From contig NZ_JBHYEO010000010.1 of assembly GCF_051860105.1 (NCBI RefSeq), forward strand, positions 2,832 to 66,831: a stretch of DNA of 64,000 nucleotides, in the 5' to 3' direction. Shown one piece after another: positions 16,886 to 34,682 of this stretch. Position numbers and translations under genes: made by a program. Position 1 is the first letter of the stretch, and each line of letters opens with the position of its first letter. The notes below the pieces were generated by a model. The model did no database searches and had not been told where the DNA came from. It saw only the letters and a program-made list of their open reading frames with translations. Source of the DNA: Microcella sp. Lineage in GTDB: Bacteria > Actinomycetota > Actinomycetes > Actinomycetales > Microbacteriaceae.

Positions 16886-17317
16886 TGGACGCTCCTTGTT
16901 TGGTGGGCAGGTGAACGGGCGGGCCGGATGTGGCGGCTTCGGGAGAAAGGGCGCGTAGCGGAGAGCTGGTGTGCGCTTCGGACGGGCGTCGGGTGAATTG
17001 AGCCCCACTGTGGGCCGCGTGAACCAGGAAGCCCGCAGCGCGGGCGATGCTGTAAATGCTCAGGCGGTCAGAGTGGCTCGCTTGTTCAGAAAGCACCATC
17101 GCTTTGTGCATGCAACCTCTCCCGTCATTTACGGTCGTCAACTGTGCCCCGGGGTCAAGGACCAGGAGTTGGTTCCGGCGGCTTAGTCTCTGGAATCGCT
17201 TCAATGTCGTTATGCCCTCCCTATGCGCGGCACGAGCCTCGGAAAGACTCAAAGTCCCTTGGTCGCCGCGACTCGAAGTGGGATCACGCGGCTTACGTGG
17301 CTGACGTGGGCGCCCTG

Positions 17318-19717: not shown

Positions 19718-20770
19718 CTAGACAGTCGGCGAGGTCACGTGCGCGTACACGTCGCCGACTTCACCAAAGTGGGAGGCGAATGCTTCCGTCCGGCCTCCGA
19801 GATAGATCAACACCGATGGGAACTGAGCCTCACCAGCCGAATCGCTGAACCGCAGTCGACCCCACAAGAAGCATCTTGGATAGGGCGCCAGAACGCGCAT
19901 CCACTGAGTGTTCGTCCGAGCAGGAAGCAACGCAATCGCTTCGGGGACATCTCCCGCTAGGTGATGGTCGTGAAGCTTCTGCACCCACTGCCGCGGCGAC
20001 CGATCAAATGGGGGGTTCAGGAACACTCGACCCCGCCACGCGTGCGCCAGCCCGTCGTCGCTGGCAGTGAAGTGGGTCTTCGCTGGCACCCAAGGAGCCT
20101 CGTGTGAGTTCGAGGCGGGGTCCAAGTCGATCGCGCCCAGGAACGACTCGATCCTATGAAGGAGATCTTTGGGTGTGTACCACTCCTGCGACCGAGAAGA
20201 CCGACGCATCCGGTAGTACTCCGCCGCGAGCACGCGGTCTTTACCGGCCGCGCGGATCAGCTCGGCAGCTGTTCGGATCGCCAGGATGCCAGCCTCGACG
20301 TCGTGAAGCATGTCTTCTGGACCGTGTTCCAGTAGGACGCGGCCGTCGCGAACGCTGCGCTCCGACACCCCCAACTTGTCGGCTGCTTGCCGTTGTGTGA
20401 CCTGATCAAGCGGCGCGTGTGCCGCTTGTGTCGCGCGTGCGCCGCCGTGTCCAAAGGTGGCCAGGCGGGCTGCGACCACGGCTCGTTGGCTTTCGGTGAG
20501 GTGGCGTCGGTGCAGATTGATGTCGACAACCCACGCCAACAGCTCGCTCTCTGAACGGGTCGTCGTGACGAACCGCGGTTGAACACCTGCGGCCTGGCAG
20601 GCGAGGAATCGGTTCCGGCCATCGACAATCGCGCCCGAAGTATCGAGGACGATCTGTTCGCGTAGCCCATGTGCGCGAATCGACTGGGTCAACTCACCAA
20701 GCGCATGCTGATCCATCAAGGGGAAGAAGTTGGCGAAGGCGTGCCACTGTCGCGCTGTCGACTCTTCCAC
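19718..20770 (-). CDS. ParB-like N-terminal domain fused to phage-type (Dam-like) N6-adenine DNA methyltransferase
   Basis: N-terminal IVLDTSGAIVDGRNRFLAC is a ParB/Srx-type motif. C-terminal WYTPKDLLHRIESFLGAIDLDPAS ... VFLNPPFDRS is typical of phage DNA N6-adenine methyltransferases. Confidence 0.8.
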   Translation of the reverse strand: MEESTARQWHAFANFFPLMDQHALGELTQSIRAHGLREQIVLDTSGAIVDGRNRFLACQAAGVQPRFVTTTRSESELLAWVVDINLHRRHLTESQRAVVAARLATFGHGGARATQAAHAPLDQVTQRQAADKLGVSERSVRDGRVLLEHGPEDMLHDVEAGILAIRTAAELIRAAGKDRVLAAEYYRMRRSSRSQEWYTPKDLLHRIESFLGAIDLDPASNSHEAPWVPAKTHFTASDDGLAHAWRGRVFLNPPFDRSPRQWVQKLHDHHLAGDVPEAIALLPARTNTQWMRVLAPYPRCFLWGRLRFSDSAGEAQFPSVLIYLGGRTEAFASHFGEVGDVYAHVTSPTV

Positions 20771-20921: not shown

Positions 20922-21824
20922 CTACAAGAGCGCGGTCGCCGGCGCCGTCATCCCGCGCAGAGTGCCAAGCTCGGCACTGTAGACGAATAAGGGCATTTCG
21001 GTTGCGGTTGCGAAGGCGATGGCTTCGGCTGTGTAACCCGCGCTGGTGAAGAAGAGGGCGCGCATGCCGCGGGATGCGGCGACGCCGAACAGCTCTCGAA
21101 CCTCAACCACGCTGACCTTGCCCTTGTAGTGCTTCACCTGCGCAACGGCGGTTTCAGAAGTGGCGTCGATGCCTCCGTCTGCACGTTCGGGTGTTGCTTG
21201 AGCGTCAAGGAAGCCGAGGTGGCGCATCCATTCGACAACAAGGAGTTCCGCGCCGCGAGGCGACGCTCCGTACGGCAGCGGTTGCGGAGCCGGGGCCGGT
21301 CGGCTGCGAATGAGCGCTGCTCGGGCTGCTTCTGCAGCAGCTTGCTCGGCTGCTTGCTCAGCGAAATGGCGCTCGCGGCTGTCTTCGATCTGTTGCTCGA
21401 ACGGCGCGAGGAACTCTTCGATGCGCTGCTCATACTGGTCTCGGAGCTCTCCCCAATCGTCGTCCCCGATGTCGACAGGACTGCTCACGCGACTGTCGCG
21501 AGTGGTACCTACCCCTTCTTCGCTGGCCATTCGGTGCATTGTTGCGGCGAAGATATCGACCTCGGGTGAGTGGTGTCCGCTGAGCTCACGGGGCAATTCT
21601 GTTGTCGAATACCTATTGTGTTTGTGGCGGCGGTGGAACACGAGTTCCCGAGTCGTGAGGCAGTACTGGATGCGCCGCCACCGGTCGTTCAGTCTGTTCG
21701 ACGTCAGTCGATTTAGATCCTCAAACGTGGGCTGCGCGATCGCGCCGCTGCGGTACGCGTCGATGGCGATCGTTGACAAAGCGATGACCGCGTTGTCAAT
21801 CTCCTCAGAGGTGAGGAGCGTCAT
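20922..21824 (-). CDS. Mrr-type (PD-(D/E)xK) restriction endonuclease domain protein with uncharacterised N-terminal region
   Basis: The C-terminal ~110 aa (AELLVVEWMRHLGF ... GGIDATSETAVAQVKHY ... ALFFTSAGYTAEA) match the Mrr_cat layout. The N-terminal ~190 aa carry no recognisable motif. Confidence 0.75.
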   Translation of the reverse strand: MTLLTSEEIDNAVIALSTIAIDAYRSGAIAQPTFEDLNRLTSNRLNDRWRRIQYCLTTRELVFHRRHKHNRYSTTELPRELSGHHSPEVDIFAATMHRMASEEGVGTTRDSRVSSPVDIGDDDWGELRDQYEQRIEEFLAPFEQQIEDSRERHFAEQAAEQAAAEAARAALIRSRPAPAPQPLPYGASPRGAELLVVEWMRHLGFLDAQATPERADGGIDATSETAVAQVKHYKGKVSVVEVRELFGVAASRGMRALFFTSAGYTAEAIAFATATEMPLFVYSAELGTLRGMTAPATALL

Positions 21825-21917
21825 CCAGTCGCTCGGCTGGGGTGCTCGGGCAGACAGCAGCAGATCCTTCCGGCGTGGGCTTGAACCACCACGCTATCGT
21901 GCCAGCCGATCCCTGCC

Positions 21918-22051
21918 CGGTTACCCTGGCGCGACCCCTAGCCGGCGGTTGAGCTCGTGGCCTGACCGCACCCGCCGCACACAAGTAGCCAACCACTGCG
22001 AGGCGGCGACGATCTTCGCCAGGGACCGCTGACCTGGACTCAGGGTAACCG
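21918..22051. repeat. 11-bp perfect inverted repeat pair flanking 112 bp, immediately upstream of tnsA
   Basis: CGGTTACCCTG (21918-21928) and CAGGGTAACCG (22041-22051), read directly. Confidence 0.6.
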
Positions 22052-22116
22052 CCAAGCGGAGGTTGGAGCCTTCTCCGCAATCGCCGAGGTGACGGGGTCT
22101 TCGCCTTCGGTATCAC

Positions 22117-22935
22117 TTGATCTCAAGAATGGCCTCCGGACGAGGCGATGCCGCGCATAGACATTGCGTGAACGAAAACGTGAACCCCAACCCCACCGCA
22201 GTCGTCGCCTTGCGCGCACAGAAGTTCAGCGGTCGCGCATCCGTATCGTGGCTCGATGCCACGGGCCAACTCCAGCGCGCCAATGCCGACTCGGCCTTGC
22301 TGGATCGCGAGCTCTACTTGGCCGAACCGATGCGTCGCGGCAATCACTACCCGCGCCAGCGCAACTACCACGGCTGGTACTACTTCTCCCAGACCTCCAG
22401 CCACGTGTGGTGCGAATCCAAGTTCGAAGCCTCGCAACTGGCCGCCCTCGATCAGGGCACGGGTGTGCTGGCGATCTCAAGCCAACCGATGAAAGTGCAG
22501 TTCGATGACGGGACCGAGCACTACCCCGACTTCCTCGCCTTGCACGACTCGCACCGGCAGGTCTTGTACGACGTAAAGCCGACGAAGTACCTGACGGAGA
22601 AGTACCTCGACCAGTTCGCCCGGACGAAGGCCATGTGCGATCGAGTCGGCTGGGGATACCGCGTTCTCACCGACTTCGATCCCATCGACGAGATCAACTT
22701 GCAGTGGATTCGCCAGTTCAAGCACCCCGGCTTCCACCCCGACCGCGCCGCCGTGAGACGACTGCTGCCCTGTTTGCCCGGTTCGCTGGCTATCGCCGCA
22801 GCCGCCCTGCAACCCGGCAACATGCCTCACGGCCGCGCCGGCATCTTCCACCTGCTGTGGCTGCGCACCCTCCACACCGCACCCGGCATCCGCCTGTCCG
22901 ACTCATCCGTGATCGAGGTGTCCCATGATGCGTGA
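22117..22935 (+). CDS. tnsA: TnsA-like endonuclease (Tn7-type transposition protein A)
   Basis: 272-aa ORF. The restriction-enzyme-like triad context is WCESKFE ... HYPDFLAL ... LYDVKPTKYL. It overlaps the tnsB start. The true start may be downstream of 22117. Confidence 0.85.
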   Translation: MISRMASGRGDAAHRHCVNENVNPNPTAVVALRAQKFSGRASVSWLDATGQLQRANADSALLDRELYLAEPMRRGNHYPRQRNYHGWYYFSQTSSHVWCESKFEASQLAALDQGTGVLAISSQPMKVQFDDGTEHYPDFLALHDSHRQVLYDVKPTKYLTEKYLDQFARTKAMCDRVGWGYRVLTDFDPIDEINLQWIRQFKHPGFHPDRAAVRRLLPCLPGSLAIAAAALQPGNMPHGRAGIFHLLWLRTLHTAPGIRLSDSSVIEVSHDA

Positions 22936-24871
22936 AGTAGACCTGACCGAGCCGCTTCAACTCGACACCGGCGTGTACGACGCGGTGCAGCGCGCCGGCA
23001 ACTGGATTCGACTCCGGCCCCACCACCCGGGAGAGCCGGTCGACATGCCCGTGTGGGAGCTATCGCGGCGCCTCGTCGGTGCCCACAGCTACACCATCTC
23101 GCCGCGGTCGATCGAGGTAGTGCCAGACGCTGCCCGCGACCACGCCTTCAGTTGGGAGCAGCATCTGGTCGAGATCGAAACCGGTCTCGGCCGCAACGGC
23201 GAGATGCGACCGCAGTACGACCCGTCCGCCACAAGTCAAGAACAGCGCGTGGCCGAGAAGATCAAGGAGCTCGCCGTCCACCACGGCCGCTCCGTGTCGC
23301 GGGCAACGGTCATGCGAAAGCTCAAGGAGTATCGCACCTGCGGTGTGGTCGGCCTCATCGACGGTCGCGCCACGCGCGCCCACGGACCGGTGGACCGACT
23401 GGATGAACGAGTACACGAAGCGTTGTGTCAGGTCATGGCCGCTCAAGCTCAGAAGTCGTCCGGCACGAAGTCCCGCATCATCAACCAAACCAGGGCCATG
23501 CTGCTGCGCACCTACGGCGCCGACGCTCCCGAGATGCCGTCACGCGCGACGATGTACCGCTACGTCGAGATCCTTGACGCTGGCCGCCACACGACCGGCC
23601 GCGCCACCACCAGGCGTTCGCAGGCGAACCGCCCCAAGCGCACCTTTGCCGACGCCAGCATGCTTCTTCCCGGCGCGCAGATTCAGATCGACTCCACCAA
23701 GCTGGACGTGTTGATTCAGGGCGCTGACGGCCCGGAGCGACCCACGCTGACGATCATGCTCGATGTGGCGACGCGCAGCATTTTGGCGTGGACATTGCGG
23801 TTGACCGCCACGAAGGGTGTCGACCACGCAGTGCTGCTGGCGCAAGCGCTCACCCCGTTCGAGAACCGGCCGTCCCGCACCGAGCATCGTGCTGCCGTGC
23901 GCGCACGGTTCCCGCACTTGGCTCTGCTCGGCGAGCAGGAGCATGAGCGGGCACGCCGCTCAGCACCGCACGTGTTCCCCCGGGCGGTCACGATCGACAA
24001 CGGCAGGGACTACGTCAGCGGCACGTTCACATCCGCGTTGAAGAAGTTCGGCATCGATGTCACCCTCTCCGCCCCCCACACCCCCACCGATAAGCCGCAC
24101 GTCGAGCGCACTTTCAGCTCGATCAACACGCTGTTCGTGCAGTACCTGCCGGGCTACGTCGGTAAGAGCCCAGTCGACCGCGGCTACAAGGTCGAGAACG
24201 ACACACTGCTGGACCTGTGGTCGCTGTACGAACTGTTCGACGACTTCGTTGCGCACGTGTGGCAGAACCGTCCTCATGAGGGCCTGACGGATCGGTACGA
24301 GCCGACGATCAAGCGCTCGCCCAATCAGATGATTGCTGTGGCGGCCGGCATCACCACGACTCTGAGCCTTCCGCTGACGGAGCGCGACTACATCGAACTA
24401 CTCCCCATCGAGCATCGCGCGATCGGATCCACAGGGATCCAACTCGGAAAGCGCTTCTATGACTCCGACCTGCTGCACCCGCTGCGCGGTGCCAAGAGCA
24501 GCATCCCCTCTCGGGGTGGCCGCTGGGCGGTGCACTACGACCCGTACAACTGGCAGACCGTGTGGCTGGTCGCCACTGACGGCGAACTGATTCCTTGCAC
24601 GGAGCGCAACGCACACCTGGCAGTTCACCCCTACTCGACGGAGTTCGACGACTCCCGTTGGCTGTTCGACGAAGACCCCGACAGCGCGGAGCCGGCCAGC
24701 GACGAGTACGAGGAAACGGAGCGCACCAAGATCGCCCGAGAAGGTGCCGCACTCGCCGGCGTCCCGATCCACCAGCCGCCTCTGCCCTCACCCGCCCGTG
24801 CTCCGCACGAGTGGGCACCGCTTCCGACCGACCTCGACGGCTACGACGTCTTCGACCCAGCAAAGGACTGA
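22925..24871 (+). CDS. tnsB: TnsB-like DDE (rve/Mu-type) transposase
   Basis: 648-aa ORF. DDE context is IQIDSTKLDV, VTIDNGRDYVS and PHVERTFSS. The N-terminus has HTH-like regions. Confidence 0.9.
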   Translation: MMREVDLTEPLQLDTGVYDAVQRAGNWIRLRPHHPGEPVDMPVWELSRRLVGAHSYTISPRSIEVVPDAARDHAFSWEQHLVEIETGLGRNGEMRPQYDPSATSQEQRVAEKIKELAVHHGRSVSRATVMRKLKEYRTCGVVGLIDGRATRAHGPVDRLDERVHEALCQVMAAQAQKSSGTKSRIINQTRAMLLRTYGADAPEMPSRATMYRYVEILDAGRHTTGRATTRRSQANRPKRTFADASMLLPGAQIQIDSTKLDVLIQGADGPERPTLTIMLDVATRSILAWTLRLTATKGVDHAVLLAQALTPFENRPSRTEHRAAVRARFPHLALLGEQEHERARRSAPHVFPRAVTIDNGRDYVSGTFTSALKKFGIDVTLSAPHTPTDKPHVERTFSSINTLFVQYLPGYVGKSPVDRGYKVENDTLLDLWSLYELFDDFVAHVWQNRPHEGLTDRYEPTIKRSPNQMIAVAAGITTTLSLPLTERDYIELLPIEHRAIGSTGIQLGKRFYDSDLLHPLRGAKSSIPSRGGRWAVHYDPYNWQTVWLVATDGELIPCTERNAHLAVHPYSTEFDDSRWLFDEDPDSAEPASDEYEETERTKIAREGAALAGVPIHQPPLPSPARAPHEWAPLPTDLDGYDVFDPAKD

Positions 24872-24873
24872 CC

Positions 24874-25926
24874 ATGTTCTTCCACTCCATCGATCGACCC
24901 GCCACCCTGAACCAACGCGAAGGGCTCATGCAGTACCTCCAGAACCCGCCGAGGCGACCAGAACTGCTCAACCGGGAGCAGCTCGCGGCGCTCAGCGAGC
25001 CGGCTCGGGCTGAGTACAACCGGCAGCGCATCGTGCACCTCTCCGGAGGCATCCTCATCAACACGCCGTACCTGATGACGGCCAAGAAGATGCTGGTCCG
25101 GAGCTTCGCCGCCAACGTCGGCCGCAACTCCGGTCACACGGGCCTGATGATCTCCGGCAACTCCACTGTCGGCAAGACCACCACCACCAAGGCACTGATG
25201 CAGTACACGTTCCTGCAGTACTGCAAACAGTTCCCCGACTTCGAAGCCCACAACCGCATCCCGATCGTCTACATCGAAGTGCCTGCAGCCTCCACCGCGA
25301 AGCTGCTCATGCGCACCTTCGCCGACTTCTTCGGTCTCAGCGTGCGCAATAGCGAGTCGATGGACAGCATCCGAAAACGCGTGATCGACACCCTGCACGA
25401 CGCCGGCACGCAGCTGATCGTGGTCGATGAACTGCACAACCTCGCCCACCGCAATGTCGGCAACGGCGACTCGGTCGATGTGCTGAAGAGCCTGCACAAC
25501 GACGTCGCCGCAACCTTCGTCTACGCCGGCATCGACCTGCTCAGCGGCAACCTCCTTGCCGGCACCCGCGGACAACAGATCGCCAGCCGGTTCGAGGCCC
25601 TCCAGATGCTCCCGTACCTGCCCCACGACACAGAGAGAGGCGACTGGGTCAAGCTCCTCGCCTCGTACGAGCGAGAGCTGCTTCTCACCGAGCACCCGTC
25701 TGGTTCCATTCCGGAGATGCGCGGCTACCTGTACGAGCGCACCAGCGGATCAGTCGGCAGCCTCAGCCGACTGCTCAGTAGCGCCGCGATCGAAGCCATC
25801 ACGAACCGGGAGCTGCCCGAGGTGATCACCCAAGCGCTTCTGGAAACCATCCGCGTGGACCACACAGCAGAGGCCCGCCGCCGTGCGACCGAAAAGCTTC
25901 TCGAACCAGACATCGACTTCAGCTGA
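24874..25926 (+). CDS. tnsC: TnsC/TniB-like AAA+ ATPase
   Basis: Walker A is ISGNSTVGKTTTTKAL and Walker B is LIVVDELHNL. Start taken at ATG 24874, 2 nt after the tnsB stop. The track ORF start at 24595 overlaps tnsB. Confidence 0.88.
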   Translation: MFFHSIDRPATLNQREGLMQYLQNPPRRPELLNREQLAALSEPARAEYNRQRIVHLSGGILINTPYLMTAKKMLVRSFAANVGRNSGHTGLMISGNSTVGKTTTTKALMQYTFLQYCKQFPDFEAHNRIPIVYIEVPAASTAKLLMRTFADFFGLSVRNSESMDSIRKRVIDTLHDAGTQLIVVDELHNLAHRNVGNGDSVDVLKSLHNDVAATFVYAGIDLLSGNLLAGTRGQQIASRFEALQMLPYLPHDTERGDWVKLLASYERELLLTEHPSGSIPEMRGYLYERTSGSVGSLSRLLSSAAIEAITNRELPEVITQALLETIRVDHTAEARRRATEKLLEPDIDFS

Positions 25927-27794
25927 TGCCAGCCGAACGCACCTTCCCCTTCTCCGTCCGCCCACTTCACCGCGAGACGATCGACAGCTACACACGCCGA
26001 CTCCTGCTGGCCAACCACGAAGACCCCGGCCTGCCCAAACGCCTGATGCGCGCCCACGATGCAGAGGGCTCAGAATCCGTCACCTGGCTTGAGGTGCTCG
26101 CTGCGAAGACGGGCCGCGGAGAGCTGCACCTCGAAGCACCAGTAGGCGGGCTGATCACCCACCGCGACGGCGGCCACTGCGGCCAATGCGCTGAACTCAC
26201 GCCGGCACGAAGACTCTGCACCCACTGCTCTCACGGCGCCGTTGTTGAGCAGCATGCCCACGTCGACTCACCCGTCTGTCGACGTCACCGTCGATGGGTG
26301 GGCTTCGACGCCGTGCCCCAACGGCCCGTGAGCCCCGAACTGCTCACTGCAGAACGACAGCTACGCCGCGTGCACCGCGACGGCCGCTATGAGCACCGCA
26401 TTTTCCTGGTCCTCCTTCGCACGCTCGCCCCTGATTGGTCCGCTCAATCTGCGGCCTTTCCGCTGGCCGTTCGCATTCTCCAATCGGTGACCAGCTGCGC
26501 ATTCTTGGCCCGTCTGCTCGACCCGAGCATCACCTACGCCGACGCGCATCGGCTGCTTGCCGAGGTCGTTGCGCTACACACCTCGAACCAAGAAGTGGTC
26601 CGAGCTCTCTGGCTCTCCCTGCGGGTCGTGTTCGCGTCGATCCACCTCAGCCGGCATCGAGGCGGCCCCATCCCCGAGCCATGGGCCCACGCTTTCCCGA
26701 TCGCGCCCGAGCTGCTCGCCAGCTCGTCGGTGGCTGCCGCGCCGTTCGAGTCGTTCAGCGGATTCCTCACTGCCGTCAACGTCACGCTGGAAGACGCGGT
26801 CGACTTCGAAGTGCAGCACCACCTGCTGCAACTCGACCCGGACGAGCACGCCAAATACCGCACGGCCTGCGGCAACGGGCACCTTCTACTCACCGCCGCC
26901 AACCGACGCCGATTCGGCGCCTGCCAGACCTGCGGGCATGGCGTACGCCCCGGCATCAACGACATCTACACCCTCGCGCCTCGACTCGTGTCGGAATGGG
27001 ATGCAGAAGCAAACGGAGGCGCAATGCCCGAGAATTTCGCCGCTGGCAGCTCCGAGAAGCGGTGGTGGCGGTGCGCACACGGACACCCATTCGCTGCCAC
27101 GCCGAGCAATCGACACATCAACAAGTCACGATGCCCCGTCTGCATGAACCGGTTGATCGTCGCCGGCGTGAACGATTTGATGACGACCCATCCAGAGATC
27201 GCGGGGGAGATCGACGATGACTTCGCTCCGGCCCTCCTCTCTAAGGCATCCGATCACATCACGTCCTTCCGCTGCCCCAGCGGACACCGCTACCAGAGGC
27301 GCATCGTCGACCGCGTTGCCGGAAAGGGATGCCTGACGTGCACGGAAGACGGCCTGAGGGCTTCAAAGCAGAGCATCGTTGACACGCACCCTGAGGTCGC
27401 GAATGAGTGGCACCCGTGGCGCAACCATCAGCGGAAGCCTGAGCACTTCAGCTTCGGGTCACGAGAGACCGCCTGGTGGCTATGTCCGCGAGGCCACGCG
27501 TTTGAGTCCCGCATCGAGCGTCGAACCCGGGCCAACTACCGGTGCGGAATGTGCAGCAAGCGTGAGTTCGCCCCCGGCGTCAACGATCTCGCGACTACCG
27601 ACCCCGAACTCGTTCTCGAATGGCATCCCCACAAGAACTCGGCCAGCGCCAGTGAGCTGATGTCGATCGACAAGCTGTTCTGGTGGAAGTGCATTGCGAG
27701 CGGGCATGAGTACGAGCAGACCGTTGACCATCGTCGCAAGTCCATGGGTTGCCCCCAGTGTGATCCTGCTGACCGTGTAATGCATCGGGCGTAG
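25926..27794 (+). CDS. tniQ: TniQ-family target-selector protein with C-terminal array of five zinc-ribbon repeats
   Basis: N-terminal FSVRPLHRETIDSYTRRLLLANH is TniQ-like. A Cys cluster HCGQCAE...CTHCSHG follows. The C-terminal half contains five C-x2-GH...C-x2-C units separated by GxND(L/I)..T.P.L..EW linkers. The start overlaps the tnsC stop (TGATG). Confidence 0.85.
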   Translation: MPAERTFPFSVRPLHRETIDSYTRRLLLANHEDPGLPKRLMRAHDAEGSESVTWLEVLAAKTGRGELHLEAPVGGLITHRDGGHCGQCAELTPARRLCTHCSHGAVVEQHAHVDSPVCRRHRRWVGFDAVPQRPVSPELLTAERQLRRVHRDGRYEHRIFLVLLRTLAPDWSAQSAAFPLAVRILQSVTSCAFLARLLDPSITYADAHRLLAEVVALHTSNQEVVRALWLSLRVVFASIHLSRHRGGPIPEPWAHAFPIAPELLASSSVAAAPFESFSGFLTAVNVTLEDAVDFEVQHHLLQLDPDEHAKYRTACGNGHLLLTAANRRRFGACQTCGHGVRPGINDIYTLAPRLVSEWDAEANGGAMPENFAAGSSEKRWWRCAHGHPFAATPSNRHINKSRCPVCMNRLIVAGVNDLMTTHPEIAGEIDDDFAPALLSKASDHITSFRCPSGHRYQRRIVDRVAGKGCLTCTEDGLRASKQSIVDTHPEVANEWHPWRNHQRKPEHFSFGSRETAWWLCPRGHAFESRIERRTRANYRCGMCSKREFAPGVNDLATTDPELVLEWHPHKNSASASELMSIDKLFWWKCIASGHEYEQTVDHRRKSMGCPQCDPADRVMHRA

Positions 27795-27831: not shown

Positions 27832-29598
27832 CTAGCCTGTCCCTGCCTGGTCGCTTGTATCCCTTTCCACCGCGCTGAGGTCAGAGCTTTCGGCGAGCAA
27901 TCGGTCTGCCTCTGCAGAGATAGCGGCGATCTCTCGCCCTGCATCGCTACGCGCTTCATCCGCGCCGATGATCGACTCCTGCGCCGCTCGGATCCCGTCG
28001 ATCAATGCCTCCATTCGCGGGTCGACTACGCTGGCGAGTTGACTACGCGCGTTCGCGGAAATCCTGTCCGCGTGCCCCATGATCTCGGTGACGAACGCGG
28101 CGTGCTGCCGGTCGCCCGCTACCTGGGTACGTCGCGCTTCGCGCTCATCTCTCCAGATTTCGTACCCGGCGCTTCCGATCTGCACCACGAAGCCAGCCAC
28201 CTTTACGGCCTTGCCGATCTTGTCAGCGATCTTCACTGCTTCCCACGGCGCGAACTTCTTGTCGAAGACGACGTGGCCGACCTCCTTGACCATCTTGTGG
28301 CCGGCGGTGCCAGCCGAGTTGCGTACCCCGTCACCGGCACCCCACCATGTCCGGCCTTGCTTGAGTTGCTCCACCACCCGGGTCAAGTCAATCTCGCGTG
28401 ATGCACGCTCTTGCGGCCTCTGACGTCCCGCTGAGCGCCCTGTCTCTGTGTCTAGCTCGACGGGTCCGTCAAGGATGATTTCCCCTGCTGCCATCAGGAG
28501 TTGACCCGCCCTGTTGCCTTGCTCGATTTCAAGTAGCTGCTCGGTCAGTTTCGTGGTCTGAACCTCGACCAAGCGATTGACGACGTCGGCGAACTGTTGG
28601 GCGTGGCGACCCAGAGCATCTGCGAGTCGTTCTTTCGCTTCGGCCAAGATCAATCGCGCCTCGGCATCGTCTGCCGGGACGCTCGTCGCGGTGTCCACGA
28701 ATCCGATCACGTCTACGCGGCAGGCTGACTTGAAGGTGTCCTCTGCTGACTTGAAGAGATGATCGATCATGTTGCGCCGCTCGGCCGCGGCCGCATGCTG
28801 ACTCGCAAGCAGGCTCAACGCCAATTTGGAGTTGTCATCCGGTACAAAGAGCTCCTGTGCTTCGTCACACAGTTGACGGACAAGGTGGATCGGTTGCCTC
28901 AGCTGGGCAAGATCGCCACGCGCCACGCTGATGGTATTGATCGCACTACGTAATGAGTCGATCCCTGATCGGGCTCGCAACTGCTCCGACCTGGGGCCCC
29001 CTTCAAGACTTCTCAGGTAGTAAACCGAGTCCACCTCCACGATGGGGAGCGTGAACGAACTGGTGCCTAGAGCTCCGTGGACTTCGTTTTCTCGGATCCC
29101 CGGAGCCGCCGACTGCATTCCAGATTGAGTGATGACCACGATCGTTTGGCCGTGAAGCCGCAAGTCAATTGTGATGCGCCGAAGATACTCACTTGCCGCA
29201 TTGTCGAGAAGGCCCACGTTCACTACAAACAGAATGAAGTCAGCATCCCCCACGGCCGCCCTCGCCTTGTCATCGTGCTCCCTGAGCCCCGACTTCACGC
29301 CCGGCGTGTCGACGAGAACAACAGCGCCATCCCACTCATATGGCGTCACTTCGTCGGTCGCAATATCAGCGTGACTGATGGGCCGAACTGCTCCGTCCGT
29401 GAGCGCTTCAATGAGTTTGGACTTCCCACTGCTGTATTGGCCGGTGAGCACCATCATGGGCTTCTCGCGCGGTTCCGACTTCGCCCTCGCAAGGAGATCC
29501 GACGCGATCGGCCCCGGCTGGCGCGAAAGCACCGTCCGGAGACGGACTATGAGGTCATTGCCTTCGGTGGCAAGTTCGTGGACGAGCATGTGAGTCAC
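27832..29598 (-). CDS. Bacterial dynamin-like GTPase (LeoA-like)
   Basis: 588-aa ORF. P-loop is LTGQYSSGKSKL and G3 is LVDTPGV, followed by a long helical stalk region. The GTG start overlaps the TGA of the upstream gene (GTGA at 29595-29598). Confidence 0.8.
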   Translation of the reverse strand: MTHMLVHELATEGNDLIVRLRTVLSRQPGPIASDLLARAKSEPREKPMMVLTGQYSSGKSKLIEALTDGAVRPISHADIATDEVTPYEWDGAVVLVDTPGVKSGLREHDDKARAAVGDADFILFVVNVGLLDNAASEYLRRITIDLRLHGQTIVVITQSGMQSAAPGIRENEVHGALGTSSFTLPIVEVDSVYYLRSLEGGPRSEQLRARSGIDSLRSAINTISVARGDLAQLRQPIHLVRQLCDEAQELFVPDDNSKLALSLLASQHAAAAERRNMIDHLFKSAEDTFKSACRVDVIGFVDTATSVPADDAEARLILAEAKERLADALGRHAQQFADVVNRLVEVQTTKLTEQLLEIEQGNRAGQLLMAAGEIILDGPVELDTETGRSAGRQRPQERASREIDLTRVVEQLKQGRTWWGAGDGVRNSAGTAGHKMVKEVGHVVFDKKFAPWEAVKIADKIGKAVKVAGFVVQIGSAGYEIWRDEREARRTQVAGDRQHAAFVTEIMGHADRISANARSQLASVVDPRMEALIDGIRAAQESIIGADEARSDAGREIAAISAEADRLLAESSDLSAVERDTSDQAGTG

Positions 29599-31775
29599 TG
29601 TCGGTCTCCTTCATCGATTCGTACGTGAATGCCTGTGTGCGCACGGGCCAGCGACTCCCACGCCTCCCGTACTCCTGAGGGCAAGGGGTCCGGATAGGAA
29701 AGCACCAAGCGGTCTTCATCCATGTGCTTGACCGTGATCTCCTGCTCCGAGAGGTTTCGCATGATGTGAAGCGCCTGCGTTGCCGGAGCATCACCGACCC
29801 AGACCGGCATGATCCGTTCCACGGCCTCAGACGGAGGGAACAACACGAGCTCGCTGTAACACGGCTCCGCCACGTCAACTACGTAGCCTGCACCGCGCCA
29901 TCGTGTTGCCTTGCGCACAGAGTCCGCGTTCCGACTGCGTCCGGTCAGCTTCAAGATTTCGCGGCTCAGCTCTGCGTCCAGTACACCGATTCCGGACTCG
30001 ATCTTCTCAGCTGCCTTCTCTAGTTTCGCAATTGCACGTGGCAACGCAGCCATGACCCTCGACTGGCGCGAAAGCTCGAACTGGACTGCCGCTGTCCAGT
30101 CTTCACGCACCCTCATCGCCGCCGAACCAAGGTCAAGTTCAAGCTGTGTGAGGAGCGGAGAGAGCTGCTCTCTCATGCGCTTCCTACGTCGCGTGTGAAG
30201 CTCGGTTGGAGAGGTGAACGCGCGGTCACCAATCCAGTCGATCAGACGGTTCACCCCCAGCAGTGAGGCGACGAGGCCGATCACGGCGCCAAGCACAAGC
30301 CCGACGGCATTTCCAACCCCGGGCCCAAGAAAGGTGCCGATCAGGGCCCCGACTTTCGCGCCTCCAATCGTGCCTGCGATGCCCACCAAGACTCGACCCC
30401 CTGCTTTCACCGCACGGTTTCCCCAGATCGCACCGCGAAGACCGAGGTTCTTGAATCCTCCAGATTCAAAGTGCGCCCAGTCCTCCGCAACGTCTATTGC
30501 GATCGTCCTCAAGTCCTCCACCAGTCGATCCCCGATCGAAGTTGCGGCCTGCGCCAGGCGGACTCGAAGAGTGTCGACTTCCTCCGCCCAACGGCGATTG
30601 ATCTCTTTAGCAGGCTGATCTACGTCGACCTCCTCAATCCACCGCTCCCGGGATCTGACTTCTGAGGTGAAGGTTCCCTCCAGTTCGTCGGCTGCATCCT
30701 GAACCCTTCGAAGTGCACGGATCCGGAAGCTCTCGCGGCTCCCGACCATTGCCTCGTATGCCGCCTGGAGGGCCCACGTTTCGCCAACAAGAGCACTGGA
30801 TGTTTCCGTTAGCTCGATTTGAGCGGCGTCAAACAAACTGACCACGCGTCGCTGAGTCGCGGTGCGATCCCGCTGGTCGGCCAACGCTGAAACAAGCGCG
30901 TCAATCCGACTGTTGGTGCGCAGAACTGCCGACAACTGCTCGTCCAACCCACCCCCCACGGAAAGGAGAGCCGCCTGCGCGTGGAAAGGGACGGCGTGTA
31001 AATACATGCCACCCGCCCGTGCAAGGTGTCGTCGGATTGGCGCGAGATTCCCTTCAGCGTCACCGCCGAATACGAGCTCCGGCTCTTCCACAAAGTCGAG
31101 GAGTCCATCCTCGTTGGTGACATCCTTGAGACAGTTCAGTGCCACAAGAATCGGCTTCCCCATGTCAGCCAGTCGTTCGAGGGCCTCACCGGTCTCGGCT
31201 TGAGTGGCCTGAGTTGGGGCCACCCAGAGAACTAGGTCCGCGTTCGCGACTTCCGCAAAGGCGGCCGCGTAGTCCTCTTCACCGTCATGCGCCCCAACGC
31301 CAGGCGTGTCGACAATCTCGATACCGAGAGCCAAGGCCTCCCGTCGCTGGGCATGCCTGGTGAACCTCTGACGACCATCCCCTACCAGGTCTCCTGAACC
31401 GCCGGACAGATACTCGAAAAGCGTGCTCTTTCCAGCCTTGGTGCGTCCCATGAGTACGACCCGGAACGGTAGATCAACATCTCTCTCCGCGATCTGGTCG
31501 AGAACGAGTTGAAGGCGCGCTTCGGCATCTCGCAAACGGGTGACAGTGGGGTCGAGGGTTGACTGCGCTCCCGCAAGGACGCTCAACGATTCGATTTCCG
31601 CCGCGGCAGTGTCGAGTCCTTCGACGAGATCCCTCCCGACCTGCGAGAGCAGCGACTTCAACGTCAATAGCGGCGTCTCGCCATCGGAGTCGGGACCATA
31701 GAAGAGATGACGGGCCCACTCTTTGCCGACACTCGCGGACCGCCCCGAGACCGTCCAGCTCATTTGCTGGTCCAC
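29595..31775 (-). CDS. Bacterial dynamin-like GTPase with glycine-zipper membrane paddle (LeoBC-like)
   Basis: 726-aa ORF. P-loop is LMGRTKAGKSTL and G3 is IVDTPGVG. The hydrophobic Gly-rich segment is GGRVLVGIAGTIGGAKVGALIGTFLGPGVGNAVGLVLGAVIGLVASLLG. Confidence 0.8.
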   Translation of the reverse strand: MDQQMSWTVSGRSASVGKEWARHLFYGPDSDGETPLLTLKSLLSQVGRDLVEGLDTAAAEIESLSVLAGAQSTLDPTVTRLRDAEARLQLVLDQIAERDVDLPFRVVLMGRTKAGKSTLFEYLSGGSGDLVGDGRQRFTRHAQRREALALGIEIVDTPGVGAHDGEEDYAAAFAEVANADLVLWVAPTQATQAETGEALERLADMGKPILVALNCLKDVTNEDGLLDFVEEPELVFGGDAEGNLAPIRRHLARAGGMYLHAVPFHAQAALLSVGGGLDEQLSAVLRTNSRIDALVSALADQRDRTATQRRVVSLFDAAQIELTETSSALVGETWALQAAYEAMVGSRESFRIRALRRVQDAADELEGTFTSEVRSRERWIEEVDVDQPAKEINRRWAEEVDTLRVRLAQAATSIGDRLVEDLRTIAIDVAEDWAHFESGGFKNLGLRGAIWGNRAVKAGGRVLVGIAGTIGGAKVGALIGTFLGPGVGNAVGLVLGAVIGLVASLLGVNRLIDWIGDRAFTSPTELHTRRRKRMREQLSPLLTQLELDLGSAAMRVREDWTAAVQFELSRQSRVMAALPRAIAKLEKAAEKIESGIGVLDAELSREILKLTGRSRNADSVRKATRWRGAGYVVDVAEPCYSELVLFPPSEAVERIMPVWVGDAPATQALHIMRNLSEQEITVKHMDEDRLVLSYPDPLPSGVREAWESLARAHTGIHVRIDEGDRQ

Positions 31776-32087
31776 GGCAAGTTGGAGACGGGCACCTGGG
31801 AGAACATGGGGCCTTGCCCTCCTTCAGCGTCGTACTGACTTGAGATCGCAAGGATGACTGGCTGCTCTCGGCCGATGTCGTAAATGATATGACATCAACA
31901 ATGTCGCCCGTCTGCCGCGAAGTGCCGCCGGAGGAACGACGAGTTCCAGACTTAGCATTCTTCGACGTGCCGCATCGCGCTCAGATAGCCGCCCAGAGGA
32001 CCTACCCCCTTTGTGCGCTGCGTGCCGTCGGACACGTCAACTTGCTCCTAACGGACGAGTGTTTCGCGAACGCGCGAGCAGATGCGA

Positions 32088-32684
32088 CTACGGAACAACG
32101 TGAACGATCAACTTCCCCGAGAATCTGTCCCAGGCAAGCTGCACGACCACCTTCGCGCCCGCTGGAACATCGATCGCAGCGGAACGGAACGATGACTTGA
32201 ACTTCAAGACTCCCTTTCCTTGGCGATTGACCTGGAGGCTCTCGTCGCGACCAACCTCACCGACGGGCACTTCGTTCCAGAGGACCTTCACACGAGGATT
32301 CACGGCGAACATCTCTCTGTATCCGCGAACTGAGACCTCCGTTGGCCGGGCGCCATCGTTCGTGTCGAGGGCAGAACTCGCGCGTGTGCCAACGTCGGGT
32401 GTCACGGGCCGAGTCGGTGCCTGGCGGGAATTAGCCTCGGTGTTCGTCGTCCGGTACTGGGGCGTTGGAATCGCAGTATCCGAAGGTCTCGGCCGCTTGT
32501 AGAAGGAAATGGCGATCAGACCAACGCCCGCTACAAACAAGAGCAGAGCATCCAGCACGCGTGCGCCGGCATCGATCGCCCCGAGCGTTCCCCCCGGTCC
32601 AGGGCGGCCGCCATTCCAATTGAGTAACCCGATCACGAGGAAGAAGAGCAGTGCAAAGCCCAGGATTCTGACGAAGATTCGCAT
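32088..32684 (-). CDS. Hypothetical membrane protein (two predicted TM helices plus a C-terminal soluble domain)
   Basis: Start taken at MRIFVRILGFALLFFLVIGLL (ATG 32684). A second hydrophobic helix is LLLFVAGVGLIAISF. The C-terminal ~90 aa look beta-rich. No motif recognised. Confidence 0.55.
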   Translation of the reverse strand: MRIFVRILGFALLFFLVIGLLNWNGGRPGPGGTLGAIDAGARVLDALLLFVAGVGLIAISFYKRPRPSDTAIPTPQYRTTNTEANSRQAPTRPVTPDVGTRASSALDTNDGARPTEVSVRGYREMFAVNPRVKVLWNEVPVGEVGRDESLQVNRQGKGVLKFKSSFRSAAIDVPAGAKVVVQLAWDRFSGKLIVHVVP

Positions 32685-32846
32685 GACCGCACGGTAGCAG
32701 GGCGAGGCCAGTCTCTGGCGAAGCAACCGGGACTGCCACACGCGCAATTCGCACGGTGTGGTCACGGGGCCGGCGCGACCGACGAAGGCACGCGAGTCTC
32801 GACTTAGAACGCAAAGTCTGATCGTTTGCGCCGTGACGGGCGACTT

Positions 32847-32941
32847 GTCTCACCCTCGCTGAGACGGCGCGCGGCAGCGGCGCGGAGATTCCCCCGATTC
32901 ATCCAGTCTCAACTAGCTGAGAAATCTCATCTGGATTGAGA
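32847..32941. repeat. Three copies of a TCTCA-N6/7-TGAGA palindrome at the low-GC/high-GC junction
   Basis: GTCTCAccctcgcTGAGAC (32847-32865), TCTCAactagcTGAGA (32907-32922) and TCTCAtctggatTGAGA (32925-32941), read directly. Confidence 0.5.
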
Positions 32942-33059
32942 ACTGTCAGCCGCTCCTGCGGCGTCGCGCCGCTCCCGCGCGACGAGCGCGGTCGCCGCGC
33001 TTCGCGTCCCGGCTCGCGCCGAGCCGGCCGCCGCTCCTGCGGCGCAGCGCGCTCCGCGG

Positions 33060-34682
33060 TCAGTCCTCGTCGGTGAGGGCGTAGCTCGCGATCTCGGCGC
33101 GCACGCGATCGAGGGCGGCGGGCGTGAGCCCCGCATCCCCCGTCACCGCCAGCCAGCCATCGACGACGACGTCGCCGAAGTTGTGGCCGTGTCGCGCCGG
33201 AACACTCTGCCCCATGAGCATGTCGATCGTCACCTGCAGGCCCGTGACCACGGGGATCCAGCGCATCGCCGGGCTCACATCCGCACCGCGCTGGTCGGGT
33301 TCGAGCCACTCGGGCGACGACCACAGCAGCTCGGGAGCGAGCCATGTGATGGGGTCGGTCGCGTGCTGGAGGTACAGCACGCGCGGCTCCTCCCAGGGGC
33401 CCGGCAGACGATCGGTGTCGCCGGGCTGCGACATCCAGCGCACCTGCGCGCCCTCATCGAGCACAGGCTGCCAGGCGGGCGACCCGGCATCGCGGGCCCC
33501 CTGCAGCTCCTGCCACATCGTCGCGCTCGCTGGGCTGCCCACGAAGAGCGCCCCATCGGTGCGCTCGCGCAGGTCGGCGAGGTCGGCGAAGACCTCCTGA
33601 CCACCGTGAGCGCCGAGGCTCAGGCCGTAGGTGACGAGCCGCGGTCGGCTGTCGACCGGTCGGCTCGACCACTCGGCATAGACGGCCTCGAAGGTCGCCC
33701 GCGCGGCCTCGACAGGAGCATCCGGATCGAACAGGAACGACACCCAACTCGGCGTGTAAGCGTACTGCAGAGCCACGATCGCCGTGTCACCGCCATGCAG
33801 GTATTCGACCGCGTCGACCGCCTGGTCTTCGAGCCAGCCCGACCCCGTCGTGGTCGCGACCACGAGCAGCTCTCGCTCGAAAGCACCCGTGCGCCGCAGC
33901 TCGTCGACCGCGAGCTCGGCGCGCTCGGTGATCGTCGTTGCATTGCCGAGCCCGACGTAGACCCGCACGGGCTCGACCGCGTCGACTCCCGTGAGCGCCG
34001 AGATCTCCGCCGCCGTCGGGCCTCCCGCGACGAACGTGCCCCCGTGCCGACCGAGGCCGCTCCACTCGACCGCCGACTTCGACCCCGCTGAGCGGTAGTC
34101 GCTCGGCGGCTCGACAAGCAGCGCATCGGGCGCGCCGTTGCGGTCGGCGTAGATCGCATCGATCGCGGCGACGGCGGCCATGCCGAGCCCAAGCACCCCC
34201 GCTGCCACGACGGCAGTCGCACCGAGAAGGCCGAGGGCGGGCCCGGTGAGCCGCACGAGGTGCACCGTCAGGCGCCGCACCCCCCGGCCGATCGTCACGA
34301 GCAGCACGGCGGTGACCAGCGCGCCGACCGAGAACGCGCCGACCGCCACGGCATCGAGAGGGGCGACCTCGACGAGCGCGCGCACCTCGTTCTGCCAGCC
34401 CACCGCAGCGAGGCCGATGACCACGATGATGGTCGCGGCGAGCGCGAGCATCCCCCACCAGAACGCGCGGTGCACCCGCGGAGACGGTCGCCAGGGGGTC
34501 GCCGAGCGGATCGCCCACCACACGAGCGCCCCGAGCAGGTACCCGAGGCCACACGCGACACCCGCGAGCACTCCCTGCAGGATCGCGGGGCGCGGCAACA
34601 GCGACGGGGTGAGCGAGAGCGCGACGAACGCGAGGCCGATGAGCGAACCTCCCGGGTCGAGATGCCACCAACGTCGCGTCAT
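33060..34682 (-). CDS. Membrane-anchored alpha/beta-hydrolase family protein
   Basis: 540-aa ORF. The N-terminus has multiple TM helices. The C-terminal hydrolase-like region includes VTYGLSLGAHGG (nucleophile elbow-like). Confidence 0.75.
   Translation of the reverse strand: MTRRWWHLDPGGSLIGLAFVALSLTPSLLPRPAILQGVLAGVACGLGYLLGALVWWAIRSATPWRPSPRVHRAFWWGMLALAATIIVVIGLAAVGWQNEVRALVEVAPLDAVAVGAFSVGALVTAVLLVTIGRGVRRLTVHLVRLTGPALGLLGATAVVAAGVLGLGMAAVAAIDAIYADRNGAPDALLVEPPSDYRSAGSKSAVEWSGLGRHGGTFVAGGPTAAEISALTGVDAVEPVRVYVGLGNATTITERAELAVDELRRTGAFERELLVVATTTGSGWLEDQAVDAVEYLHGGDTAIVALQYAYTPSWVSFLFDPDAPVEAARATFEAVYAEWSSRPVDSRPRLVTYGLSLGAHGGQEVFADLADLRERTDGALFVGSPASATMWQELQGARDAGSPAWQPVLDEGAQVRWMSQPGDTDRLPGPWEEPRVLYLQHATDPITWLAPELLWSSPEWLEPDQRGADVSPAMRWIPVVTGLQVTIDMLMGQSVPARHGHNFGDVVVDGWLAVTGDAGLTPAALDRVRAEIASYALTDED

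Follow-up and report, generated by a model that had tools for sequence, protein, structure and literature searches.

Tn7-like elements have attracted study as tools for precise DNA insertion, in which the target selector determines where the cargo ends up. The known protein-guided selectors recognise DNA through helix-turn-helix (HTH) domains, and RNA-guided selectors use CRISPR effectors. The TniQ and TnsD proteins have in common a core of ∼300 amino acids (aa), consisting of a helical domain, a zinc finger, a connector and a further helical domain, and the swapping of DNA-binding domains in this group is established (PMC10293859). Archaeal TniQs carry tandem C2H2 zinc-finger DNA-binding domains, which were proposed to be target readers, and zero C2H2 arrays were reported among bacterial TniQs (10.1101/2025.07.27.667033). 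Here we analyse a Tn7-like element in a 64,000-nucleotide stretch of DNA from Microcella sp. (Microbacteriaceae; RefSeq assembly GCF_051860105.1, contig NZ_JBHYEO010000010.1, positions 2,832 to 66,831, forward strand), the whole of which is referred to as the window. The product of its putative tniQ gene, a 622-aa protein encoded by the open reading frame (ORF) at 25926-27794 (+ strand), appears to combine a divergent TniQ domain with a C-terminal array of zinc modules of the family DUF4379 (PF14311), the sole significant Pfam family in the protein.

The C-terminal zinc-module array

An earlier note, made from the sequence alone, had described the end of the protein as five tandem zinc-ribbon repeats of the form C-x2-GH-x(10-14)-C-x2-C. 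A regular-expression scan did find five zinc sites of the general form C-x2/3-GH-x13-15-C-x2-C, so that the pattern is present but with a spacer of 13-15 residues and, in the fifth site, a C-x3-GH knuckle. The sites are C315-GNGH-x13-C333-x2-C336, C383-x2-GH-x15-C403-x2-C406, C450-x2-GH-x14-C469-x2-C472, C520-x2-GH-x15-C540-x2-C543 and C589-x3-GH-x14-C609-x2-C612. The C/H/C/C ligand set of each of the five sites is kept in 19 homologues, with every residue either invariant or at least 90% conserved. PF14311 (DUF4379, 'probable treble clef zinc finger') matches the protein in four stretches (E = 1.1e-42; 144.5 bits against a cutoff of 24.5), and the array alone with E = 2.3e-45, which bears out the suggested likeness to the treble-clef 'probable zinc-ribbon' repeats.

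Unit boundaries were set with a repeat hidden Markov model (HMM) built from family members. This gives a half unit, consisting of the knuckle only, at residues 298-338, followed by four full units of 63-68 aa that are spaced by 2-3 residues. The five repeats of the earlier note are thus five zinc sites, but one half unit and four full units. The half unit (26817-26939, + strand) has the knuckle C315/H319/C333/C336, covers only positions 37-65 of the repeat HMM and is without the N-terminal helical half; a Pfam scan of this segment alone gave no match, and all four of its ligands are invariant in the 19 homologues. The full units, all on the + strand, are R1 (residues 341-408; 26946-27149; 81 bits with the repeat HMM), R2 (412-474; 27159-27347; 62 bits), R3 (478-545; 27357-27560; 80 bits) and R4 (549-614; 27570-27767; 79 bits). 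Each has its own short patch in front of an Arg: ATPSN-R in R1, RRIVD-R in R2, SRIER-R in R3 and QTVDH-R in R4. R2 is without the EW and WW tryptophans, R3 is without G-x-N-D, and R4 has the C-x3-GH knuckle.

The motif G-x-N-D-L-x-T-x-P-x-L-x-x-EW, which had been noticed before and taken for a linker, is found at residues 343, 414 and 551, and in degenerate form ahead of unit 3. The reading as a linker does not hold: the strongest Pfam stretch, in R1, runs from residue 354 to 408 and covers positions 1-55 of the 56 in the DUF4379 model, and the motif aligns with model positions 1-20. It therefore forms the N-terminal half of each following unit.

The structural comparisons gave a consistent picture. 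The AlphaFold2 model has a mean predicted local distance difference test (pLDDT) score of 87, with the array folding confidently at ∼85-93. In a Foldseek search against solved structures, the best matches to the array were kinetoplastid mitoribosomal and assembly-factor chains; 6yxx_E2 was matched with E = 6e-8, and 6sga_Fd, 7pua_Fd and 9hny_Fd with TMt 0.63-0.68 and probability 1.0. A sequence search of the PDB returned only 6sga_Fd (mt-SAF33, deposited as a DUF4379 protein), which is matched by R4 (E = 4e-10). Both the profile matches and the predicted fold indicate that the C-terminal half is an array of predicted zinc-binding treble-clef DUF4379 units.

Pfam scans of the 622-aa protein found no HTH family, in keeping with what had been suggested for this C-terminus, and the DUF4379 units cover the whole of the C-terminal half. 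They also gave no match to the C2H2 zinc finger (PF00096), whose pattern is C-x2-4-C-x12-H-x2-6-H, the ligands here being C-H-C-C with a 67-aa period, and no nuclease domain.

The N-terminal domain as a probable divergent TniQ

Residues 1-297 (25926-26816, + strand) are predicted to form a helical domain, a Cys/His zinc finger and a second helical domain. The helices lie at residues 19-62 and 137-297, and the Cys/His cluster at 85-121 supplies the zinc-finger residues C85, C88, C98, C101, H112, C118 and H121. This predicted layout of helices, zinc finger and helices fits the TniQ/TnsD core described previously (PMC10293859). The domain had been called a normal TniQ N-domain; this description did not hold, as no match to PF06527 is obtained at E ≤ 10 and the link to TniQ is a transitive one. 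An NCBIfam scan of the 622-aa protein gave no match, and profile searches of the PDB, with alignments of the full-length protein and of the N-domain, returned no TniQ or TnsD chain.

The transitive link comes from a scan in which the N-domain alignment was compared with one genome per species. It gave 18 loci, 15 of them with the DUF4379-bearing form, and included short relatives of the N-domain in Mycolicibacter longobardus and in a Mycobacterium metagenome-assembled genome (MAG). These proteins, of 285 aa (locus L018, 9947-10804) and 311 aa (L019, 8983-9918), have no repeats and score 28.9 and 34 bits, respectively, with PF06527, against a cutoff of 27. Both adjoin a TnsC-like match; in L018 the upstream genes look fragmented. 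When the family profile was aligned with the 311-aa Mycobacterium protein using hhalign, the probability was 97.7% (E = 1.8e-12), and the alignment spans the N-terminal helices, the Cys-rich segment and the helices that follow.

Modelling of residues 1-306 with AlphaFold2 gave a pLDDT of 85.5 and a predicted template modelling score (pTM) of 0.83. The sole specific Foldseek matches to the N-domain model were 7svu_X and 7oxd, the TniQ of the CRISPR-associated transposon (CAST) ShCAST, with probability 0.82, TMt 0.42 and E values of 0.5-0.6. On the strength of these profile and model comparisons we treat the 622-aa protein as a divergent TniQ, linked to the family transitively.

The tns operon

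The position of the gene fits this assignment: it occupies the tniQ slot of a tnsA-tnsB-tnsC-tniQ operon. The four genes are co-directional, lie at 22.1-27.8 kb and are separated from their neighbours by overlaps or 2-nt gaps. The tnsA-like endonuclease gene (22117-22935, + strand) encodes a match to PF08722 (Tn7_TnsA-like_N; E = 2.2e-6; 28.5 bits against a cutoff of 26.5), has syntenic homologues in 15 related loci and possibly has its true start at the ATG at 22129. It is overlapped by 11 nt by tnsB (22925-24871, + strand), which encodes a DDE transposase with PF00665 rve (33.0 bits, cutoff 32.6) and PF09299 Mu-transpos_C (22.6 bits, cutoff 21.7), and whose homologues in the related loci are 31-62% identical. 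The tnsC gene (24874-25926, + strand) encodes a TniB-type AAA+ ATPase (PF05621 TniB, E = 1.9e-17; AAA_22); its likely start is the ATG at 24874, and the tblastn match begins only at residue 96 of the long ORF. The tnsC stop overlaps the tniQ ATG by 1 nt, and tniQ is the immediate downstream neighbour of tnsC, an arrangement kept in 15 related loci. The operon contains no other tniQ candidate.

Spread of the fusion

A word-indexed search found 23 homologues with 28-53% identity, all of which contain PF14311 except for one truncated protein; the only names given to them are 'zinc-ribbon domain-containing protein'. Together with two loci fetched by protein look-up, the 15 DUF4379-bearing loci of the genome scan make 17 Microbacteriaceae loci, or 16 distinct ones (L002 and L008 being from the same MAG). 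The named genera are Microcella, Cryobacterium, Leifsonia, Curtobacterium and Microbacterium, so that in named genomes the fusion is found in Microbacteriaceae throughout, and the remaining loci are from uncultured Actinomycetota MAGs. The tnsA-tnsB-tnsC-tniQ order is present in 15 of the 16 distinct loci.

An exhaustive HMMER search with the N-domain profile against 1.84 billion cluster representatives (50% identity) gave 520 matches at E ≤ 1e-3, of which 127 were at E ≤ 1e-30. Units were counted with the family repeat HMM in aligned relatives (n = 136). Among the best 150 of the 520 matches, every protein of at least 560 aa (93 of 93) carries between two and eight full units: 58 have four, 25 have five, four have six and one has eight. 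Since all 93 full-length representatives carry the array, the fusion, for which a survey of homologues had been proposed, is the rule in the clade. Judged by these profile matches, the bacterial clade with the fusion is made up of at least 93 clusters at 50% identity.

Some copies are damaged. In L007 and L011 (Curtobacterium) a frameshift interrupts tniQ downstream of the first zinc site, and in L002/L008 and L011 tnsB is broken into three frames; decay of the element is therefore under way in several copies. In L012 (9133-12091), an end motif (TGTGGATTCTCAAG) is followed immediately by a tniQ homologue with DUF4379 units, which has no tnsA, tnsB or tnsC match within 10 kb of it, and this copy may be a deletion derivative.

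Identity of the individual units

The relationships between units were examined in a tree of 78 units from 17 proteins. The R1, R3 and R4 units each form one clade across the 17 proteins, with supports of 0.86, 0.97 and 0.97, respectively, and the R2 units are contiguous in the leaf order. The units are thus position-orthologous, which indicates an old four-unit array whose positions are individually distinct. In P0022 and P0023, which are longer, the additional units group with each other, as lineage-specific expansions.

Column entropies locate the residues that give the positions their identity. Differences between positions that are kept within a position cluster in columns 51-55 and 59-60, which fall between the GH knuckle and the C-x2-C pair and directly precede the invariant Arg. 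The family consensus patches are ATPSN-R (R1), xRIxD-R (R2), QRIER-R (R3) and QSVxH-R (R4), and in R1, R3 and R4 the residues specific to each position are kept from genus to genus. R3 is the most basic unit, with an isoelectric point (pI) of 10.1. The conservation of the patches across genera argues for one fixed ligand for the family and not for a code that is rewritten from element to element. The idea of a possibly modular readout was therefore only partly sustained: the number of units does vary, from two to eight, but the conserved patches speak against a freely reprogrammed code.

The transposon end and its cargo

The tns genes are inside a 33-kb region with a guanine plus cytosine (GC) content of 60-67%, the adjoining core DNA being at ∼70-73%. 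The tniQ-side transposon end was mapped to 32796-32948 (+ strand), where there are four TCTCA-N6/7-TGAGA-type sites, at 32796, 32847, 32905 and 32923. A Tn7-like transposon is bounded by two ends, each with several TnsB-binding repeats and in inverted orientation to the other, and by a 5-bp target duplication; the mapped end, with its four sites, would be one of the two. The terminus, ...AATCTCATCTGGATTGAGAACTGTCA, finishes at 32948 (position weight matrix score 32.7), the cluster of sites is found nowhere else in the island, and the GC content steps from ∼0.61-0.67 to 0.72 exactly at the mapped end. The end of the relatives is of the same kind, with three or four TCTCA-N-TGAGA-type sites, closing in the 26-mer AGTCTCA-N9-GAGAA-N3-ACA. 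In L003, L004, L006, L007, L009, L011 and L013 this end motif is within ∼200 bp of the tniQ stop.

In the window, the low-GC DNA between tniQ and the mapped end (27832-32765, − strand) contains two overlapping dynamin-like GTPase genes, encoding 588 and 726 aa (27832-29598 and 29595-31775, − strand; PF01926 MMR_HSR1, PF00350 Dynamin_N, PF18709 DLP_helical), and an ORF without a family (32088-32765, − strand). The location of the GTPase pair between tniQ and the mapped end makes it cargo of the element, of which the ORF is also part. The first host-type gene past the end encodes an Abhydrolase_9 protein (33060-34682, − strand; PF10081, E = 1e-114; PF15420). It is in convergent orientation, with its stop codon ∼110 bp from the terminus, and its GC content at third codon positions is 0.88, against 0.70-0.82 in the island.

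On the tnsA side, no inverted copy of the terminal 26-mer is present in the window, nor upstream of tnsA in any locus. Upstream of tnsA, the relatives have in common a gene for a protein with a helicase-associated (HA) domain, a small gene in divergent orientation and a gene for a Dam-type methylase, and the element therefore reaches beyond tnsA, with its second end outside the fetched DNA. Several candidate boundaries were rejected. An end directly upstream of tnsA is at odds with the small divergent and HA-domain genes that most relatives have there; a comparison of 21825-22116 with the rest of the island for long inverted repeats gave only GC-rich chance matches; TGTGRATTCTCA, a motif of L001, L012 and L013, had no convincing match as an opposite-orientation end in the window, the match at 17051 being without neighbouring sites; and an identity step at ∼3.9 kb in the Curtobacterium loci proved to be coding sequence with an indel. 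P0001 is on record solely on a 7.6-kb Logan contig.

Some further features of the upstream region were seen. The HA-domain gene (PF03457; 18280-18867, − strand, in the window) accompanies the tns module in most relatives, usually 1-1.5 kb upstream of tnsA and on the opposite strand; it is upstream of tnsA in L002, L006, L007, L009, L010, L011 and L013, and downstream of tniQ in L001. The small conserved gene, divergent from tnsA and ∼100-450 bp upstream of it (− strand), occurs in L002, L004-L007, L009, L011, L013-L015 and L017, and may be a regulator. The window is without it and has at that place genes for an Mrr_cat nuclease (20922-21824) and a Dam-type methylase (19718-20770). There is also an 11-bp perfect inverted repeat upstream of tnsA (21918-21928, CGGTTACCCTG; 22041-22051, CAGGGTAACCG), which is unlike the mapped end motif.

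Insertion sites

Next to the terminus on the tniQ side is the 3′ end of the abhydrolase gene in the window, the 5′ end of a PPOX-like gene in L003 and a MerR-like gene in L015 and L017, which is common to these two only. In L006 (11996-12087) a tRNA-Gly(ccc) gene has its 3′ end 18 bp away from the terminus, and is the sole tRNA found beside any of these elements.

Three of the neighbourhoods stand out. In L013 (12091-12140), the terminus ...GCGAAACGACA is followed by 6 bp (AACCGC) and then by an opposite-type end, TGTGAATTCTCACGC (the opposite-type end 6 bp past the first is TGTGAATTCTCA), and the junction looks like two elements inserted head to tail. The elements of the window and of L003 are beside orthologous host genes, though the elements themselves are only ∼67-68% identical, and those of L015 and L017 abut one MerR-like gene, with flanks that are 80% identical, though the elements are again only ∼68% identical. 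Together these three cases hint at site-directed insertion.

A direct repeat containing CCGCTCCTGCGGCG was also seen at the terminus in the window (32940-32969) and again 81 bp later (33021-33050), the second copy being just ahead of the abhydrolase stop codon. L003 has GCCGCTC in common with it, immediately after its own terminus.

What the array may recognise

We think it rather probable that the protein is a Tn7-like target selector whose DNA-binding region was replaced by the DUF4379 array. The element, with tnsA, tnsB, tnsC, tniQ and a dynamin-like GTPase cargo, would have the 622-aa protein as its selector of the TniQ/TnsD type. To judge from solved complexes of TniQ with TnsC, the divergent TniQ core (residues 1-297) would bind to the TnsC filament, and residues 298-622 would stand in for the multi-HTH region of TnsD, as a rigidly spaced chain with five treble-clef zinc sites. 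The array would presumably lie along the DNA beside the insertion point, with each unit contacting a few bp via the five residues before the invariant Arg (ATPSN-R, RRIVD-R, SRIER-R and QTVDH-R), and these contacts would set the place of assembly for TnsC and subsequently for TnsA and TnsB. DNA binding by the array and its role in choosing the attachment site are what we infer from homology and from the kinds of protein in which the domain recurs, and the fusion would probably be an undescribed way for Tn7-like transposons to read their insertion site.

Several observations weigh against this proposal. The TniQ family of Pfam (PF06527) does not match residues 1-311 even at E ≤ 10. The solved DUF4379 structures are all kinetoplastid mitoribosomal or assembly-factor chains, and these belong to RNA-protein particles, not to DNA. 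The array as a whole is just mildly basic (pI 8.5), with units R2 and R4 acidic. The second end was not found in the window or in the fetched flanks, and no attachment site came to light beside the mapped end: what flanks it differs between loci, four closely related Curtobacterium elements have four different immediate flanks, and the flanks have no motif in common, even among Curtobacterium elements that are 82-91% identical.

Some of these points bear on the main rival, which we regard as unlikely. Here, the array would bind another ligand, a conserved host protein or a structured nucleic acid, and would tether TniQ to it; RNA, a replication or transcription intermediate and a tRNA-like fold are possible candidates. 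Tethering of this sort has models in TnsE, which uses the sliding clamp, and in CAST TniQ, which uses Cascade. It would suit the occurrence of the solved DUF4379 domains in ribonucleoprotein particles and the acidity of two of the units, and it would account for residues in R1, R3 and R4 being conserved across genera while the visible flanks vary. A conserved ligand is, however, equally compatible with one conserved att sequence at the other end of the element. Moreover, the usual fusion partner of DUF4379 arrays in phages and giant viruses is a DNA endonuclease domain, and in the related loci there is no conserved partner gene beside tniQ.

It is very unlikely that the array recognises the element's own ends, through the TCTCA-N-TGAGA sites, or serves as a regulator or immunity factor. 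The end motif and the unit residues are both conserved in the family and the flanks are not, which speaks for such a role, but we saw no direct support for it. To our knowledge, TnsB reads the ends in every Tn7-like system that has been studied, and here tnsB is present and intact. The TniQ family, for its part, consists of target selectors (PMC10293859).

The weakest explanation is that the protein is not a TniQ at all but an unrelated zinc-module protein encoded after tnsC, such as the product of a cargo gene or a decayed nuclease; despite the lack of a direct Pfam or NCBIfam TniQ match, of any TniQ or TnsD chain in the PDB profile searches and of a Foldseek E value against TniQ better than 0.5, we consider this highly improbable in view of the 1-nt overlap with tnsC, the synteny strictly kept in 15 loci, the transitive link to PF06527 members that adjoin a TnsC-like match, and the lack of a nuclease domain in the protein and of another tniQ candidate in the operon.

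Returning to the proposal of a target selector with a DUF4379 array for its DNA-binding region, a bolder version of it would be that DUF4379 arrays are a natural modular DNA-reading scaffold, coupled here to a TniQ core, in which each 67-aa unit reads a few bp by means of the five residues in front of the invariant Arg. We find this unlikely. If it were true, Tn7-type insertion guided by protein would be redirected without RNA by exchanging or adding units, of which natural proteins have four to eight.

Comparison with known systems

The closest described systems are the TnsD and TnsD-like selectors (Faure et al. 2023, PMC10293859), which are likewise encoded by the last gene of a tnsA-tnsB-tnsC operon and, like the present protein as modelled, have a core of ∼300 aa ahead of a long C-terminal region that is presumed to bind DNA. 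The present element also resembles Tn7 and CAST elements in its defence-type cargo and in having several TnsB-type sites at its end. It differs from TnsD systems in that the C-terminus has five treble-clef zinc sites, of DUF4379, where TnsD has multiple HTH domains; in addition, the N-domain is too divergent for PF06527, and the relatives carry cargo on both sides of the tns operon. DUF4379, treble-clef or ribbon domains on TniQ or TnsD are not mentioned in that study (PMC10293859), no paper combining a treble clef with TniQ was found in the searched literature, and no solved TniQ or TnsD chain matches the array. The suspicion that the array has no counterpart among characterised TniQ and TnsD proteins was therefore correct, as far as solved chains and the searched literature go.

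The archaeal C2H2-TniQs (10.1101/2025.07.27.667033) also join a TniQ core to tandem small zinc modules, and provide a precedent for such arrays. Their fingers are those of PF00096 and are ∼28 aa long, whereas the modules here are DUF4379 treble clefs of ∼67 aa with C-H-C-C ligands, and the host is bacterial (Microbacteriaceae). Neither treble clefs nor zinc ribbons are mentioned in the archaeal preprint.

A second group of relatives is found through the array itself. It matches PHROG 559, 'HNH endonuclease', with E = 1.6e-13 over residues 374-614, and also PHROG 681, 'endonuclease'. Its model matches 87 BFVD structures at E ≤ 1e-3 (best E = 4e-20), and those of the top matches that have names are proteins of phages and giant viruses whose annotation is either restriction, homing or HNH endonuclease or simply treble-clef zinc-finger or zinc-ribbon protein. 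Phage intron endonucleases contain three to five CapR/DUF4379/DUF723-like domains of ∼60 aa together with an EDxHD/Vsr nuclease domain, and a DNA-binding role was proposed for their CapR-like repeats (PMC12350094). The viral homing-type endonucleases have tandem arrays of this repeat family too, with 3-8 units, and likewise belong to selfish elements. In them the array shares its polypeptide with the effector, a nuclease of the Vsr/EDxHD, HNH or restriction type, whereas here the effector is a TniQ core that would recruit a separate transposase. In the viral nucleases and in this TniQ, the array is always on a selfish element that needs a specific DNA site.

The kinetoplastid mitoribosomal DUF4379 proteins (6sga_Fd mt-SAF33, 6yxx_E2 and 7pub_DS) provide the only solved structures of the domain. 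Their sequence (E = 4e-10) and fold matches confirm the treble-clef unit here, but they are components of eukaryotic ribonucleoproteins, have one to a few units and are unrelated to transposition.

The clade makes DUF4379, a domain of unknown function, more accessible to study. If the array reads DNA, this would be the first defined biological context for DUF4379, with the insertion site as a simple read-out, and would place a compact repeat-based recognition module on a transposase recruiter; if it binds another ligand, it would represent a new way of tethering TniQ. Set against the systems described above, in which the swapping of DNA-binding domains is itself already known, what is new here is a sizeable, conserved and unnamed clade of TniQ proteins with a DUF4379 array.

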